A stretch of 64,000 nt of DNA from positions 27,723 through 91,722 of IMG/VR virus record IMGVR_UViG_3300005613_000025. The stretch is one strand, 5' to 3'. The notes under the pieces are model-generated. The model was given only the letters and a program-made list of their open reading frames with translations, was not told the origin of the DNA and did not search any database. Of this stretch, positions 9,297-37,867 are shown one piece after another. Source of the DNA: a virus. The position numbers and the translations under genes are program-made. Numbering within the stretch: position 1 is the stretch's first letter; each line of letters opens with the position of its first letter.

Positions 9297-10122
9297 AAAA
9301 GGATTTCTTAAACTTTTTGACATCAAGATACCAAGAGAGTGTGATTTTGACTATTATATAGATCAATTGTCAAATCTATCAAGATACTCCAATATCAAGG
9401 AACTGGTGGATATATATCACGAGGATGAGTTGAAATATGGTGACCTTTTCGAACTTAGAATGATTCTTTCGAATGAGATCATCAATGAATTGAAAAACAC
9501 ACATGCTTATAATGAAATGTTGATCGATCAACTATCAGGACTTCCTACGAATAAAAGTTATTCATATGACAATGGTATTTATGTTTCGATCGACCTTAGG
9601 TCTGCTAATTTCCAATCTCTGAAAAAGTATGACCAAAGAGGTGAAATTCCAACCAGTTATAGTGAGTTGTTAAGTAATTTCAATTCACCAGAGATATTCA
9701 AGCATTCAAAATATCTCAGACAGGTGATTTTTGGTAATCTGAATCCTAAAAGACAACAACTTGTTCAACGACATATAGTTCAAGAACTTGTAAGAAAATT
9801 GGATTCAGAGAATATTCAAGCAGTGAGAAATGATGAGATAATCATAAAGTTGGAAAGTTATGATGAATATGAATCCAATATAGAACCATATGTTGATTTT
9901 GAAAAGTATCGTGTGAAAATCTTTCAAAATTCAAACTATGATGGATTCAGGATCGAGCGTGAGATAGATAGTGATGGCCGACTTATTTCAAAGGATTTTT
10001 ATGGATTGAACAGGAACATGTTATTTTGGAAGATCAAGGAACTTATAACATTCGAAGAAATAGAAGATCGAGATCTTTATTTCATATCCGAAGGAAAACT
10101 TGCAAAATGGGTCATTGAGTGA
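9277..10122 (+). CDS. Hypothetical protein
   Basis: 281-aa ORF; SIDLRSANFQ and RNDE motifs. Confidence 0.65.
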   Translation: MNTLKDKKGFLKLFDIKIPRECDFDYYIDQLSNLSRYSNIKELVDIYHEDELKYGDLFELRMILSNEIINELKNTHAYNEMLIDQLSGLPTNKSYSYDNGIYVSIDLRSANFQSLKKYDQRGEIPTSYSELLSNFNSPEIFKHSKYLRQVIFGNLNPKRQQLVQRHIVQELVRKLDSENIQAVRNDEIIIKLESYDEYESNIEPYVDFEKYRVKIFQNSNYDGFRIEREIDSDGRLISKDFYGLNRNMLFWKIKELITFEEIEDRDLYFISEGKLAKWVIE

Positions 10123-10465
10123 CTTTTATTTGTAATTTTCCATCCATACTGCTGAAATTTTTATGCTGTTTTGTTTCTAAAAGATAATAGCTAACTTCGA
10201 ATCCAATATCATTTAACCTTTTAAAGAATACATCACATTCTTTGTATATCTCTTGCATTTCATTTTGATTTTCATAGATATTCATTGGAACATGTCCTTT
10301 TATTTCATATTTGAATTCCACCAAGTATAAACTCTGCTGTTTCCATCTATTGTGAAGTTTTGCAGTGAACTCATCGACCTCATCTATCAGTTCATATGCA
10401 GCATCATATATCTTGCTGATGTTATCATCTGTTTCATTTTCAAATATGTGTCTGATATGCTTCAT
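10112..10465 (-). CDS. Hypothetical protein (probable virion-internal)
   Basis: MKHIRHIFENE start. Confidence 0.65.
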   Translation of the reverse strand: MKHIRHIFENETDDNISKIYDAAYELIDEVDEFTAKLHNRWKQQSLYLVEFKYEIKGHVPMNIYENQNEMQEIYKECDVFFKRLNDIGFEVSYYLLETKQHKNFSSMDGKLQIKVTQ

Positions 10466-15112: not shown

Positions 15113-16783
15113 ATGTCAATAAGGAGAGATGTAAATAAATATAAGCCAAGAAAAGAGCAACAAGAGTGTTTGGATTTCATTGATTCAAATTATAAGAAAA
15201 ATCCACAGGATAAGATATATCTTTTGGATCTTCCAGTAGGTGTGGGAAAGTCACATCTTGCTATGATGATATCACAATGGTATTTTGATAATGTTAACAG
15301 GATGGCAAGAGTTGATGTCATCACGAATTCAAAGATATTGCAGGATCAATATTCATCGACCTATAATTCAATTCAAGACCTGAAAGGAAAGGATAACTAT
15401 GAATGTAAAGAATATGGATGTTCCTGTGCGCAAGGTGCAGAGTTCAATAAATTGAATAAGACGAAATGTGATGATTGTCCTTATCAGTATGCAAGAGAGT
15501 CATTCATAAATGGTAAAATTTCATTGACCAACTTTTATCTTTATGTACTTTATGCACTTTACATACCAAAGGTGTTGGAAAATAGAGCAGCATCTGTTCT
15601 TATAGTCGATGAGGCTCATTCATTTGATGAGGTCATGAGTAATTTCATATCAGTAAAGATAACTGAGAAAACCATTAAAAAGATGAAACTCACCGATGAG
15701 AGGAAAATGCTAAGTGAGTTGAAGTCGGTCAAGACGATATCAGAATATATCAAATTCTTGAAGAAGCTTGAAAAAACAATTTCAAATTCAATGAATGACA
15801 TTACACGATCAATGATGGGCAGATCACGAAGCATCACAAAAGATAAAAGAAGTGTTAAATTATCAGTGATACTGGAAAAAGGTCCGAACAGTGATGTGAA
15901 AATGATGAATCTCATATCTGACCTTGATCAGTTGAGATCAAAGATCGAGATATTTTTAAAAGAGTATGAGAATGATCCTGACAATTGGATATTGGAATCA
16001 AATTGGAATGAAAAGACCAAGAAGGTTGAACTTTCACTTGAGCCGATATGGGCCTATGAATATCTTGATAAATATGTTTTCTCAAAATACGATATGGTCT
16101 TTCTCATGTCAGGAACAATATTGAACAAATCTCTTTTCTGTGAAATAAATGGCCTCGATGTTGATCGGTCAGTATATTACTCGATCAATTCACCATTTGA
16201 AGTAAGTAAAAGACCTATATTTTATATGCCGCTTGGTAAAATGTCATATAAACAAAAAGAAACAACATTCAAGAATTACATACCATATATACATAAGATA
16301 CTGAAAAAGTACAATGATAAGAAGGGGATCATCCACACAAATTCCTTTGAATTGTCAAAATGGATCGAGGATTCAGTCAAGGATGATAGATTGATGTTCC
16401 ATGATTCATCAAATAAAGATCAGGTCCTGAACGAACATTATGACTCTACTAAGCCGTCAGTGATTGTCTCACCATCAATGGATACCGGTGTAAGCTTCGA
16501 TGATGATAAGGCAAGATTTCAGATCATTGCAAAGGTTCCATATCCTACACTCGCATCTAAAAAGAACAAGATGCGTCAAAAAATGAAACCTGATTGGTAC
16601 ATATGGAGAACCGTGTCCGGCTTGATACAAATGACCGGAAGAGCTGTAAGATCAGTGGATGATCATGCCGATACAATTATAATAGATGGAGGATTCGGTG
16701 ATGTAATGAGATTCAGTTCACATTTTTTACCGAAATGGTTTCAAAATGCAATAAGATCGGTCAATATCAAAACAAAAGTTTGA
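15113..16783 (+). CDS. DinG/XPD-family helicase
   Basis: Q motif, PVGVGKS, Cys cluster, DEAH, MSGT, QMTGRAVRS..D. Confidence 0.92.
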   Translation: MSIRRDVNKYKPRKEQQECLDFIDSNYKKNPQDKIYLLDLPVGVGKSHLAMMISQWYFDNVNRMARVDVITNSKILQDQYSSTYNSIQDLKGKDNYECKEYGCSCAQGAEFNKLNKTKCDDCPYQYARESFINGKISLTNFYLYVLYALYIPKVLENRAASVLIVDEAHSFDEVMSNFISVKITEKTIKKMKLTDERKMLSELKSVKTISEYIKFLKKLEKTISNSMNDITRSMMGRSRSITKDKRSVKLSVILEKGPNSDVKMMNLISDLDQLRSKIEIFLKEYENDPDNWILESNWNEKTKKVELSLEPIWAYEYLDKYVFSKYDMVFLMSGTILNKSLFCEINGLDVDRSVYYSINSPFEVSKRPIFYMPLGKMSYKQKETTFKNYIPYIHKILKKYNDKKGIIHTNSFELSKWIEDSVKDDRLMFHDSSNKDQVLNEHYDSTKPSVIVSPSMDTGVSFDDDKARFQIIAKVPYPTLASKKNKMRQKMKPDWYIWRTVSGLIQMTGRAVRSVDDHADTIIIDGGFGDVMRFSSHFLPKWFQNAIRSVNIKTKV

Positions 16784-27657: not shown

Positions 27658-28053
27658 ATGAAAATATATTTAGATTTTGATGGAACTGTTGTTGAACACA
27701 TGTATCCTGAAATTGGAAAAATAAATCCAGGATCTTTGGATGTAATACAAAAATTACACGATGCTGGTCACGAAATAATAATAAACACGATGCGTGCTGA
27801 TATGAGAAACGGTACACTACAACAGGCACTGTACTTCCTCAACTCAATACCTTACTGTAATATCAAGTTTGAAAAGTTCTGTGCATCAAAAGTTGATCCT
27901 GATGAATGGGTAACCCCAAATAAAGAAATGGAAAAGATATACATTGATGACATTGCACACGGAATCCCACTCAGAGACGGATTCCATGTAGGTTCAAAAA
28001 TGGTTGATTGGCAAGAACTGAATAGACAATTTACAGATAATAATATTTATTGA
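27658..28053 (+). CDS. HAD-superfamily hydrolase
   Basis: YLDFDGTVV, IYIDD. Confidence 0.85.
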   Translation: MKIYLDFDGTVVEHMYPEIGKINPGSLDVIQKLHDAGHEIIINTMRADMRNGTLQQALYFLNSIPYCNIKFEKFCASKVDPDEWVTPNKEMEKIYIDDIAHGIPLRDGFHVGSKMVDWQELNRQFTDNNIY

Positions 28054-28538
28054 TGAAGAAGGAATTAAGAAAACTCAAATTATTTGAACTTGGTATAGGA
28101 GAATGGCCATATACTACCTCCTACGAATCGATGAAAGATGTGGTTGATCGAAATCTTGATGGGTGTGTTATCAAGACAAGTGATGATTGCCCAGATTCTT
28201 ATGTTTTCATTCAAGGGGGAAAGTATATTATGGAGCAGGATAAAAAAAATGACGCTTTATGGGTCAGATGGGATGGTCTTTGGTCCATTTTTTCAAATGA
28301 CTTTTCTTTGGAACATAGTGACATTCAAGCAATTATAAAGTTCCTGGTGGAACAACATCTCAAATCAAAGGTAGGAACACCAAAATACGACTATCCGAAT
28401 TCAACATCTGAGGTGGAACAACATCTCAAATCAAAGGTAGGAACACCTGGTCTTCATATCAATTACACCATTGAAGGGGTGGAAAAACATCTCAAATCAA
28501 AGGTAGGAACACCCCAGGAATCTACTTGGTACAACTGA
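28050..28538 (+). CDS. Array-associated small protein A (C-terminus reads through the repeats)
   Basis: Paralog of 37339..37725; VEQHLKSKVGTP repeats at a 22-aa period. Confidence 0.75.
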   Translation: MMKKELRKLKLFELGIGEWPYTTSYESMKDVVDRNLDGCVIKTSDDCPDSYVFIQGGKYIMEQDKKNDALWVRWDGLWSIFSNDFSLEHSDIQAIIKFLVEQHLKSKVGTPKYDYPNSTSEVEQHLKSKVGTPGLHINYTIEGVEKHLKSKVGTPQESTWYN

Positions 28539-28579
28539 ACACCGGTGGAACAACATCTCAAATCAAAGGTAGGAACATC
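28346..28579. CRISPR. CRISPR-like mini-array 1: four 36-bp repeats, three 30-bp spacers, no cas gene in the window
   Basis: GGTGGAACAACATCTCAAATCAAAGGTAGGAACACC at 28346, 28412, 28478 (one mismatch) and 28544 (one mismatch); spacers unique. Confidence 0.75.
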
Positions 28580-28725
28580 CGATTGGGTCACGCGGATCCT
28601 GAGTTGAAAAAATTAGTGGATAATTGAACTCGTGAAAGACTATCAATAGTATCAACATCTGAAAGCCCAAACAACTTTGACAGATATTTTCAATAGAATT
28701 TAAAACTGTTAAAAATATAAAAAAA

Positions 28726-36856: not shown

Positions 36857-37342
36857 ATGAAAATGACATCAAAACAACTATTGGATAGACACGATGAGAT
36901 AAAGGACCGTATCTCAAAAAAGTATGGATTTTTTCTTTATTTTCTTTTACAGAACATTTTCAACATCTCGAAACTTGAAGAACTTGTCGAGTCAAAAGGA
37001 TTCAGTGTGAAAAGAAAAAAAGTTGGATATGATATATTATCTGAAATATATGATGGTGAGAAACATATCGGTCTTATACAATCAACTGCCGGTTGGCCAA
37101 CCATTGAACTTTTAAAGTTCAAAGGAAACAAAAAAATTGCAAGATCACTTGCCGAGTCTGATATTATCATAGAACCGGTTGAAGGATATCATAGGATCCT
37201 TGATTGGCACGATGTGTGTGGTAAATTACATATATTGGCCGGTGGTCAGATAATACTGAATTCTCTGCCCCATGAACTTAAAGATCAACATGTTTCAAAA
37301 TTCATAAATGATAATAATTTAACATCTTTAATAGGGAAATGA
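36857..37342 (+). CDS. Hypothetical protein
   Basis: ORF behind TATATTTG, translationally coupled to 37339. Confidence 0.6.
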   Translation: MKMTSKQLLDRHDEIKDRISKKYGFFLYFLLQNIFNISKLEELVESKGFSVKRKKVGYDILSEIYDGEKHIGLIQSTAGWPTIELLKFKGNKKIARSLAESDIIIEPVEGYHRILDWHDVCGKLHILAGGQIILNSLPHELKDQHVSKFINDNNLTSLIGK

Positions 37343-37725
37343 AACAACAACTCAGAAAACTAAAGCTTTATGAATTGGGTATTGCTGAATGGCCTTATGC
37401 GACCTCCTATGAAGAGATGAAAGAAGTGGTCGAGCGTAACTTGGAAGGATGTGTTATCAAGACATCCGATGAGTATCCAGGTTCTTATTTTTTCACGCAA
37501 GGAAAAAAGGTTATCATGGAACAAAATCAAAAAAATGATGTTCTATGGGTGAGGTATGATGGGTTTTGGTCCATTTTTTCAAACGACTTTTCCTTGGAAA
37601 GGACTGACATTCAAGCAATTATAAAGTTCCTGGTGGAACAACACCTCAAATCAAAGATAGGAACACCGGCTAGCACCTTCACTCATTTCAGTAAGCGGTG
37701 GAACAACACCTCAAATCAAAGATAG
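37339..37725 (+). CDS. Array-associated small protein B
   Basis: Paralog of 28050..28538, clearly similar up to VEQHLKSKIGTP. Confidence 0.75.
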   Translation: MKQQLRKLKLYELGIAEWPYATSYEEMKEVVERNLEGCVIKTSDEYPGSYFFTQGKKVIMEQNQKNDVLWVRYDGFWSIFSNDFSLERTDIQAIIKFLVEQHLKSKIGTPASTFTHFSKRWNNTSNQR

Positions 37726-37856
37726 GAACACCCCGCATTCATCTCGTTGGCGAAGTAGTTGTGGTGGAACAACACCTCAAATCAAAGATAGGAACACCAT
37801 GGCTTAGGTCACAAAGAGTTAACGGGCAGGTGGAACAACATCTCAGATAAAGGTAA
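37632..37856. CRISPR. CRISPR-like mini-array 2: three full repeats plus one degenerate; spacers 29/30/30 bp
   Basis: GGTGGAACAACACCTCAAATCAAAGATAGGAACACC at 37632, 37697 and 37763; degenerate copy from 37829. Confidence 0.75.
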
Positions 37857-37867
37857 TATAAGGATTC

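Follow-up and report, generated by a model that had tools for sequence, protein, structure and literature searches.

A putative CRISPR-type array with Cas13b-class repeats that begins inside a small phage gene

Mini-CRISPR arrays without cas genes are known from viruses (Medvedeva et al. 2019, PMC6858448; see PMC11656645 for a review), and huge phages carry compact, Cas-poor arrays with a median of six repeats, which sometimes target host genes (Al-Shayeb et al. 2020, PMC7162821). Racrs, by comparison, are solitary phage repeat units which imitate the repeats of the host and tie up its Cas proteins (PMC10651486). Surveys of viral repeat units and of plasmid CRISPR systems have recovered every type except type VI (PMC10651486, PMC11656645). 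In the literature searched, the descriptions of viral mini-arrays and huge-phage arrays mention neither a start within a gene nor a link to a particular gene family, and we found there no array whose leader and first repeat form the coding 3' end of a gene.

In this paper we describe an array with this layout from a 64,000-nucleotide stretch (hereafter the window) of a 91.7-kb IMG/VR record from a giant aquatic phage, the hosts of which are probably Flavobacteriales. The array resembles viral mini-arrays in being short and in lacking adaptation and interference genes, the use of host Cas proteins being presumed in such cases. The repeats of known mini-arrays are, however, identical to those of the host, whereas the exact phage repeat is absent from 185,579 species genomes, so that a host array sharing it is not known; in IMG/VR it likewise had no match outside the window's own record. 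Moreover, the spacers of known mini-arrays mostly target related viruses, while the one clear spacer source in the phage family is a host housekeeping gene. As with Racrs, the phage encodes copies of a class of CRISPR repeats while cas genes are lacking, and a decoy role of the phage repeat RNAs is possible. Racrs, however, are non-coding and spacerless, whereas the phage elements are true arrays with spacer turnover inside an ORF. The features of the first copy (module 1) are as follows; model R1 is described further below.

28053-28382, + strand: small gene of module 1, conserved, 110 codons, own stop codon absent
28053-28538, + strand: ORF as read, comprising the domain, spacer 1, repeat 2, spacer 2, repeat 3 and part of spacer 3, ending with TGA
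28263-28345, + strand: leader-like stretch, codons 71-98, synonymous sites unusually conserved
28340-28353, strand not assigned: palindrome GTTCC-TGGT-GGAAC, spanning the leader-repeat junction
28346-28381, + strand: repeat 1, 36 nt, encoding VEQHLKSKVGTP (model R1: 18.0 bits, register 1-36)
28382-28411, + strand: spacer 1, 30 nt, GC 0.33, nearest to the gene
28412-28447, + strand: repeat 2, identical to repeat 1
28448-28477, + strand: spacer 2, 30 nt
28478-28513, + strand: repeat 3, one mismatch (C to A; R1: 18.3 bits)
28514-28543, + strand: spacer 3, 30 nt, with the in-frame TGA
28544-28579, + strand: repeat 4, terminal copy, one mismatch, degenerate 3' end (CACC to CATC; R1: 16.0 bits)

A first-pass annotation, made from the letters of the window alone, had reported four 36-nt repeats with complementary ends (GGTG...CACC) and three unique 30-nt spacers. 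Both statements hold for the interval 28346-28579, where the repeats start at distances of 66/66/66 and the three spacers are mutually unrelated; in the whole window, seven repeat matches were observed, compared with 0 after shuffling. The same annotation had placed repeat 1 in frame inside the ORF and the end of the frame at a TGA in spacer 3. This is confirmed: repeat 1 encodes the last 12 residues of the 110-codon gene, and the frame stays open up to the TGA at 28536-28538. The start codon requires revision, however, as the gene likely begins not at the TTG at 28050 (162 aa) but at the ATG at 28053 (161 aa), which overlaps the stop codon (TGATG) of the HAD-like gene directly upstream.

The small gene is by its substitution pattern under purifying selection, with dN/dS of 0.15-0.35 at dS of 0.4-1.1. 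Synonymous change is unevenly distributed, mean dS amounting to 0.36 in codons 71-98 as opposed to 1.09 in codons 36-70, and the last 30 nt ahead of the repeat show 97% nucleotide identity among five gene copies; the leader-repeat junction sequence itself is identical in five gene copies. The palindrome at this junction involves, among the array repeats, repeat 1 only. Scans of the + strand near both arrays of the window for promoters and terminators yielded nothing above shuffled sequences. An AF2 model of the small protein (pLDDT 95.4) has the element order aa-bbbb-aa, and repeat 1 codes for the end of the predicted last helix and for the tail of the domain. Here a CRISPR repeat would be constrained at once as DNA signal, as RNA and as protein.

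A paralogous module is located at 37339-37864 of the window, and its protein is 78% identical to that of module 1 at the amino acid level:

37339-37668, + strand: paralogous small gene of module 2, start overlapping the upstream stop (ATGA)
37626-37639: palindrome identical to that of module 1
37632-37667, 37697-37732 and 37763-37798, + strand: three repeats of array 2 (R1: 12.9 bits each)
37799-37828, + strand: third spacer of array 2, followed from 37829 (to 37864) by a decayed terminal repeat

The three repeats of array 2 differ from those of array 1 by two substitutions common to all three, and its spacers measure 29/30/30 nt, the 29-nt spacer breaking the reading frame.

Several hundred sequence clusters from giant aquatic phages form a family defined by this layout, which is still turning over. 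We found 324 distant relatives of the small gene (>300 clusters in the family), and relatives with a protein identity of 29-33% have 36-nt repeats, 29-31-nt spacers and decaying distal repeats in their DNA. The repeats have diverged along with their genes, the arrays are short (2-5 spacers), and several copies occur per genome. Whether homologues of the small gene abut such arrays with variable spacers had been raised as a check in the first-pass annotation, and this is what is seen: the layout recurs across the family, in the majority of the members examined, and at loci L008, L009/L011 and L012 it is kept while the spacers differ. The tails also differ among 15 close homologues of the small protein. 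Among the contigs that encode distant members are some of 148 kb, 245 kb and 551 kb. None of the three complete phage genomes of ~635 kb with DNA in common with the window carries the family; a tblastn search of the family against phage records returned nothing, and searches of IMG/VR with P0036, P0021 and P0017 gave no match.

Comparison of loci with the same protein sequence allows the position of change to be located. L008 and L010 differ by gene-proximal units only, as do P0008 and P0013, and between L009a and P0004 the difference amounts to three gene-proximal units; in any single case of this kind, a deletion between repeats could mimic the pattern. Contigs from other metagenomes, i.e. 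assembled contigs from four runs that cover the array in part, have a different sequence straight after repeat 1, and one contig from an RNA library runs from the gene end through repeat 1 into a different spacer, an observation at the level of the contig and not of RNA ends. At the opposite side, terminal repeats are degenerate in arrays 1 and 2 and in relatives. By these alignments, turnover is polarised towards the leader-proximal end and accompanied by distal decay, the pattern by which CRISPR arrays are recognised.

A repetitive 3' end that is translated could also be mistaken for CRISPR while being an ordinary tandem repeat of a protein or a multi-core precursor resembling those of RiPPs. 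In multi-core precursors of the cyanobactin PatE type a conserved domain is followed by constant short segments flanking hypervariable cores, and these cassettes are in frame and maintained as protein. The phage tails resemble them in having variable segments of about 10 residues between constant ones; a recurring 12-mer was found in 62 of 162 family proteins examined, 57 of these 62 having a period of 22 aa, frame 0 of the repeat is open, and array 1 remains in frame through two spacers. Unlike in PatE-type precursors, however, the frame is interrupted by 29- and 31-nt spacers in array 2, L009, L012, L049 and L053, stops occur, and identical repeats persist untranslated, in full length, beyond stops and frameshifts. 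It is because of these spacer lengths, broken frames, stops and perfect out-of-frame repeats that we do not regard the array as an ordinary protein repeat. The repeats are, furthermore, nucleotide-identical while the spacers have nothing in common, one spacer in the family copies a host housekeeping gene, and the repeat fits a Cas13b repeat model (both below). Spacers alignable as protein among homologues, which according to the first-pass annotation would have indicated an ordinary repeat, were looked for and are not what the homologues have. Taken together, we consider such a misreading highly improbable.

A different proposal accepts the array and makes protein-tail diversification its selected function, with ever-new C-terminal cassettes of 10 residues and RNA guides being irrelevant. 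Family-wide, the small gene is without its own stop codon and always runs into the array, the repeat codes for part of a confidently predicted last helix, the first spacer is read through in 121 of 160 family representatives, and P0017 has five modules and eight spacers in one frame of 760 aa. The remaining 39 representatives, however, terminate within spacer 1, and the choice of cluster representatives may be skewed in favour of long tails. Stops are not depleted in the coding frame either: they occur in 7 of 26 spacers in frame 0, against a mean of 9.8 of 26 in the other five frames, one of which has stops in only 4. Together with the frame-breaking spacers and the perfect repeats past stops and out of frame, this makes a selected function of the tails unlikely. 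The first-pass annotation had listed diversification of the C-terminus among three options; what stands of it is the consequence, which is real because the tails change with every spacer, while a sign of selected function is lacking. Tail rewriting is regarded here as a by-product.

The origin of spacers bears on the same question. Their mean GC content is 0.44, compared with 0.33 for the phage. Spacer 1 of array b of the relative L009 agrees in 26-27 of 29 positions with a PGI-like SIS gene of four aligned Flavobacteriales genomes, and further genomes match this stretch at lower identity. The differences lie mostly three bases apart, as with third codon positions, and the similarity stops at the spacer edges; judged by this alignment, the spacer was copied from a conserved chromosomal gene of Flavobacteriales. 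Spacer 3 of array 1 has a 25/30 sense match to the end of the coding region for a T9SS C-terminal domain in a Flavobacteriales gene, which is not significant alone and is taken as suggestive only. Searching the spacers for their sources, as envisaged in the first-pass annotation, has led to a source for a relative's spacer and, this 25/30 match aside, to none for the window's own spacers. The two protospacers have opposite orientations relative to mRNA. A BLAST comparison of the arrays with 50,697 phage records gave chance-level matches only, and an exact search of one spacer in IMG/VR had no match. Microhomology of the repeat with the flanks of host protospacers was considered and rejected (empirical p 0.03-0.9).

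The repeat itself can be assigned to a class. The first-pass annotation had likened it to Cas13b-type repeats, and this likeness is borne out by a covariance model (R1) built from seven host repeats adjoining Cas13b and from no phage repeats. In the window (128 kb searched), the top seven matches of R1 are the seven phage repeats, with 12.9-18.3 bits, all on the + strand and in register 1-36, although the E-values per repeat are marginal (0.02-0.8). R1 also detects arrays in distant members of the family, as well as L008 and L012 (E about 0.015). The seven host repeats have 12 invariant columns, of which the phage repeat fits 11, the similarity being concentrated in the ends and a GGTA block, and AAAGGTAGG is common to the phage repeat and the Cas13b-adjacent repeat of locus L040. 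No match to the phage repeats was found with 65-odd other Rfam CRISPR-DR models. By its fit to R1 the phage repeat is best placed in the type VI-B repeat class. Two other comparisons were discarded: orientation-blind repeat identity is uninformative (15-21/36 in either orientation), and the similarity to Bergeyella zoohelcum retrieved with an end-motif pattern is not counted because the pattern forced 16 positions, repeats found via the Cas13b protein being used instead.

The organisation of host type VI-B loci provides a second comparison. The type VI-B arrays of Bacteroidota (B. zoohelcum ATCC 43767, Capnocytophaga) have, like the phage array, a 36-nt repeat and 30-nt spacers. The 36+30 geometry invoked by the first-pass annotation is thus indeed found in host arrays adjoining Cas13b, although it is not exclusive to VI-B, as it is common to the type II-C arrays of some species. 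Host and phage arrays both lie directly downstream of the preceding gene and co-oriented with it, cas1 and cas2 are absent from the locus in both cases, and spacers from the host chromosome are known from the VI-B array of Flavobacterium columnare (PMC8092290) as well as from the phage family. In those host loci in which the array follows cas13b, however, its first repeat begins 43-808 nt past the ORF end (43-62 nt in four loci), whereas in the phage the preceding gene is an unrelated one of ~110 codons and the first repeat lies inside its coding sequence. The phage arrays are also very short and present in several copies per genome, unlike host VI-B arrays. Finally, host repeats have a strong inner stem, whereas the phage repeat combines a terminal 4-bp GGUG/CACC stem with an inner hairpin of only 4 weak pairs (folding z -0.4 to -1.2), and its positions 2/35 are G/C, those of the aligned host repeats being U or C and A or G, respectively.

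No cas gene was found in the window, as was stated in the first-pass annotation, and this extends to the whole 91.7-kb record. The record contains no ORF of at least 800 aa, and Pfam and PADLOC scans of its large ORFs detected nothing Cas-like except a DinG-type helicase. Cas1 (PF01867) was not found in the record or in a 108.5-kb relative (G001), which represent 16-18% of their genomes, and PADLOC did not find Cas13b in these two or in three further relatives (G775-777); altogether, the Cas searches covered about 290 kb of phage fragments, i.e. 3-26% of their genomes. A search of two fragments for a tracrRNA-like anti-repeat gave nothing beyond the shuffled level: outside the arrays, the best complementarity to the repeat reaches 26/36 (G-U allowed), compared with 24-27 for shuffled repeats. 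On the host side, Cas1 occurs in 85 of 391 sampled Flavobacteriales (about one in five species), and Cas13b in 7 of 401 sampled Flavobacteriales and 3 of 401 Bacteroidota. Cas13b is therefore rare in the likely hosts, whereas the gene-array family is large and its repeats are diverse.

The explanation that we favour, with a probability of roughly 0.58, is that of a real CRISPR-type array of the VI-B (Cas13b) repeat class without nearby cas genes, whose leader and first repeat lie inside a phage gene and which is filled in trans. In F. columnare, type II-C machinery fills a VI-B array that lacks cas1, often with DNA of the host genome, and transcription runs from the leader into the array (PMC8092290); the proposed filling in trans has its parallel there. 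New spacers would enter at the junction of leader and repeat through a Cas1-Cas2 integrase from outside the locus, supplied either by the host or by another part of the roughly 570-kb phage genome, and every insertion would also rewrite the C-terminal tail of the protein. The array would be co-transcribed with the small gene, since the start of that gene is translationally coupled to the gene upstream, and its repeat-spacer RNAs may interact with an effector of the Cas13b type, serving it as guides or sequestering it as decoys. The designation "CRISPR-like" of the first-pass annotation is thus upheld by the 29-31-nt spacers, the proximal variants, the terminal decay and the host-copied spacer, while its three options fare differently. 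A phage mini-array served by Cas proteins in trans fits best, although the scarcity of Cas13b among Flavobacteriales (7/401), the likely host order, counts against it.

The remaining option, the ~110-aa protein as effector, leads to the idea that the module is a self-contained new system, in which a protein of about 100 residues recognises repeat DNA or RNA and, independently of Cas proteins, promotes insertion or uses the RNA. Gene and array are strictly linked and co-diverge over >300 clusters, whole modules have been duplicated within genomes, few candidate hosts possess Cas13b, and the fold of the small protein matches nothing solved (Z below 5). On the other hand, the protein is small, and no informative match was obtained with it in Pfam, PHROGs, PADLOC, a PDB sequence search, VIA-align or the ESM Atlas, Foldseek returning uncharacterised phage proteins only. 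A PD-(D/E)xK nuclease identity is rejected, for the residues of the PD...DxK-like motif lack conservation: position 48 is occupied by D in 68 members but by N in 47 (N in 30%), position 63 by D in 108 of 161 and position 65 by K in 114 of 152. Homology to the C-terminus of Cas13b is likewise rejected (hhalign probability 0.2). Moreover, the 36/30 geometry, the spread of 29-31 nt and the exactly duplicated repeats are the hallmark of Cas1-Cas2, and the repeat resembles the existing Cas13b repeat class. The effector role had been offered in the first-pass annotation; strict linkage is all that speaks for it, with neither a nuclease nor a nucleic-acid-binding fold recognised, and a self-contained system appears quite doubtful.

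A related idea, which we hold to be improbable though worth stating, treats the gene and its embedded array as one device. In one version (a) the small protein would be a new array-associated factor by which a phage maintains and extends an array in the absence of a cas operon of its own; in the other (b) the layout would serve as a sensor. In the sensor version, a Cas13b-type cut at repeat 1 would sever the mRNA ahead of any stop codon, and the amount or fate of the protein would report the activity of the host effector, the repeat RNAs at the same time sequestering this effector.

If the arrays are filled and used by way of host enzymes, these phages record host DNA and may steer or jam RNA-targeting defence; if host enzymes are not involved, a hidden adaptation or effector function would reside in the phages. 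Spacers on the phage side offer a direct way of assigning uncultured giant phages to hosts. Spacer 1 of L009 array a, finally, has a 23/30 match to positions 10318-10347 of the window, within an ORF for which no homologues were found.

The small gene of ~110 codons and the repeats at its end occur twice in the window, as module 1 (28053-28579) and module 2 (37339-37864), with the following parts:

start ATG 28053, + strand: module 1 gene, its start overlapping the stop of an upstream HAD-like gene
28346, 28412, 28478 and 28544 (repeat starts), + strand: array 1, four 36-nt repeat copies and three unrelated 30-nt spacers
37339-37668, + strand: module 2 gene, a paralogue 9 kb from module 1
within 37339-37864: array 2, three full repeats with two substitutions common to all; spacers of 29, 30 and 30 nt; fourth repeat decayed

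The 36-bp repeats and 30-bp spacers that the first-pass annotation had reported for the first locus are present (shuffled sequence gives 0 chance matches), as is the open frame it had traced through the array: repeat 1 is in frame with the module 1 ORF and encodes VEQHLKSKVGTP, and the frame reads across two spacers and ends at a TGA in spacer 3. In array 2 the 29-nt spacer breaks the reading frame, yet two perfect repeats come after it. Both small genes start inside the upstream stop codon (TGATG, 28050-28056; ATGA, 37339-37342), and the modules thus represent translationally coupled inserts in operons. Their neighbours are unrelated: one module lies by a HAD-like phosphatase and ClpP, the other by unknown ORFs.

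The same gene-plus-array is found in an IMG/VR relative (L008) and in four metagenome contigs (L009-L012), with repeats differing by 1-3 bases and spacers unlike those of the window; L010 and L008 have three spacers in common, and L011 duplicates L009, both carrying two modules in tandem. Genes for identical proteins differ by whole gene-proximal units: L008 equals L010 plus one unit, the homologue P0008 equals P0013 plus one, and L009a, one of the tandem modules, equals P0004 plus three at the same protein sequence. Agreement with the window stops after repeat 1 in contigs of two other metagenomes and in one contig of a metatranscriptome library: the gene end and the repeat match, but the sequence beyond is different. 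The GC content of the spacers is 0.44 as against 0.33 for the phage, and no spacer matches the phage itself. In-frame stops occur in 7 of 26 spacers in the reading frame, compared with 9.8 on average across the five alternative frames; they are therefore not depleted, and no selection for translatable spacers is seen in this small sample of 26. In all these respects the locus behaves like a CRISPR array and unlike a protein repeat.

All 15 close homologues run as far as the repeat and are divergent beyond it, and an exhaustive phmmer search recovered 324 family representatives at E <= 0.001. In distant members (30-45% identity), whose repeat sequences differ, a C-terminal 12-residue unit recurs after 10 variable residues; this recurrence was found in 62 of the 162 family proteins examined, with a period of exactly 22 residues in 57 of the 62, and many of the remaining proteins read the repeat in a shifted frame (e.g. 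...RWNNISNQR). At the DNA level, relatives at 29-33% protein identity possess 36-nt repeats GTTGGAAGAG...ACACC with spacers of 29-31 nt, and repeat decay increases away from the gene. The homologue P0017 (760 aa, 148.5-kb JGI contig) comprises five domain-plus-array modules in one unbroken frame with eight in-frame spacers, each following domain starting, as known from the protein sequence, immediately past a decayed repeat.

The small gene is genuine, and a double constraint acts on the stretch ahead of its repeat. The two window paralogues show 78% protein identity, and dN/dS is 0.15-0.35 at dS 0.4-1.1 (five gene copies, three phages). The AlphaFold2 model (40-sequence alignment, pLDDT 95.4) predicts two helices, a four-stranded sheet and two further helices, the end of the last being encoded by the repeat. 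No solved structure resembled this model (Z below 5), its BFVD matches were uncharacterised phage proteins only, and a candidate relationship to Cas13b was rejected, the two being unrelated. Synonymous divergence is 1.09 over codons 36-70 but drops to 0.36 over codons 71-98 and to 0.27 across the repeat, nucleotide identity over the 30 nt preceding the repeat reaches 97%, and a small palindrome (GTTCC-TGGT-GGAAC) spans the gene-repeat junction in both modules, so that the 3' coding part behaves like a CRISPR leader. Gene conversion between the modules could contribute to this constraint.

To class the repeat we compared it with seven distinct host repeats adjacent to Cas13b, six oriented by gene direction and that of the host locus L045, whose array lies upstream of the gene, by its 3' motif. 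The phage repeat agrees with 11 of their 12 invariant columns. A covariance model built from the host repeats alone and run unfiltered over the whole window returned the seven phage repeats as its top seven hits, each on the expected strand and aligned in register 1-36, which upholds the likeness to Cas13b repeats that the first-pass annotation had proposed. Single E-values are modest (0.02-0.8); the weight rests on the agreement of the hits with units that had been defined independently. Repeats of L008, L012 and distant family members are picked up by the model as well. None of Rfam's other CRISPR-repeat families match the phage repeats. The phage repeat has a weak inner hairpin. Host arrays downstream of cas13b run in the same direction as the gene, their first repeat lying 43-808 nt past the ORF end (43-62 nt in four); by comparison, the phage layout looks like the same arrangement pushed into the upstream gene. 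A short array in a Bacteroidaceae MAG (JAFTEV010000081.1, 404-570, reverse) has 29-30-nt spacers and a repeat starting GGTGGAA as in the phage, matching it at 22 of 36 positions; Cas13b was not found in that genome.

PADLOC and Pfam searches over about 290 kb of phage fragments, 3-26% of their genomes, yielded no Cas1, Cas13b or other Cas, bearing out the absence of cas genes first noted in the window, and no anti-repeat was found in these fragments. Cas1 is present in 85 of 391 sampled Flavobacteriales. The closest documented behaviour is that of the VI-B array of Flavobacterium columnare, which has no cas1/cas2, takes up spacers, many of them from the bacterial genome, in trans through the II-C machinery despite differing leaders and repeats, and shows transcription running from the leader into the array (PMC8092290). 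We conclude that a phage gene here holds an embedded, Cas-less array of the VI-B class that is probably filled in trans. Its RNAs would derive from the 3' portion of an operon transcript and might guide a Cas13b-type effector or act as its decoy; a changing tail and participation of the small protein are further candidate roles. For a simple host-hijack model the main difficulty is the rarity of Cas13b in candidate hosts: a protein search found its genes in 3/401 Bacteroidota and 7/401 Flavobacteriales genomes. The exact phage repeat is absent from 185,579 species genomes. Cas-less arrays of huge phages (PMC7162821), viral mini-arrays (PMC6858448) and viral solitary repeats (PMC10651486) have already been described, and type VI is the sole type absent on viruses or plasmids in surveys (PMC10651486, PMC11656645); in the literature searched, no array is described as having its start within a gene.

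A clear source was identified for spacer 1 of L009 array b: in four aligned Flavobacteriales genomes, 26-27 of its 29 positions agree with a PGI-like SIS-domain gene (PF10432), and the same stretch is matched, at lower identity, in many further sampled genomes. Mismatches are mostly three bases apart, like third codon positions, similarity stops at the spacer edges, and the spacer, read in array sense, runs antisense to the mRNA. Spacer 3 of array 1 agrees at 25/30 positions, in sense orientation, with the end of a Flavobacteriales gene that codes for a T9SS sorting domain, a match that alone is not significant. A likeness of protospacer flanks to the repeat failed the empirical control. The gene-proximal spacer of L009 array a matches 10318-10347 of the window (ORF 10112-10465, - strand) at 23/30, a score reached by 0/60 shuffled spacers; this site, in sense orientation, could represent a diverged protospacer from a related phage.

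The source is an IMG/VR virus record of 91.7 kb (window, its bases 27723-91722), which at 16% completeness (CheckV) would be a piece of a roughly half-megabase phage. The window (GC 0.33) encodes a T4-type major capsid protein, a split family-B polymerase, ClpP and DNA ligase, and shows weak DNA similarity to uncultured 635-642-kb phages and Lak phages. The PADLOC model 'typeIV_DinG (CAS-IV-A associated)' matches a 556-aa DinG/Rad3-type helicase (15113-16783, + strand) from end to end (E 2e-60); no other type IV components were seen, and the protein is probably an ordinary phage helicase. Several large proteins contain DUF7487 (L013:366-1505 and L013:5726-7759, upstream part of the record; L025:2679-4649), one of them fused to an MTES_1575/Vsr-like endonuclease domain; these genes flank capsid genes and may be mobile nuclease genes. 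In three related viral contigs, the conserved domain of small-gene family members contains 2-3 in-frame TAG codons (G775:C1:63791-64135 and 65122-65499 in L051; likewise these genes in L050 and L052), an indication that TAG is a sense codon in these phages, as in Lak-type megaphages.
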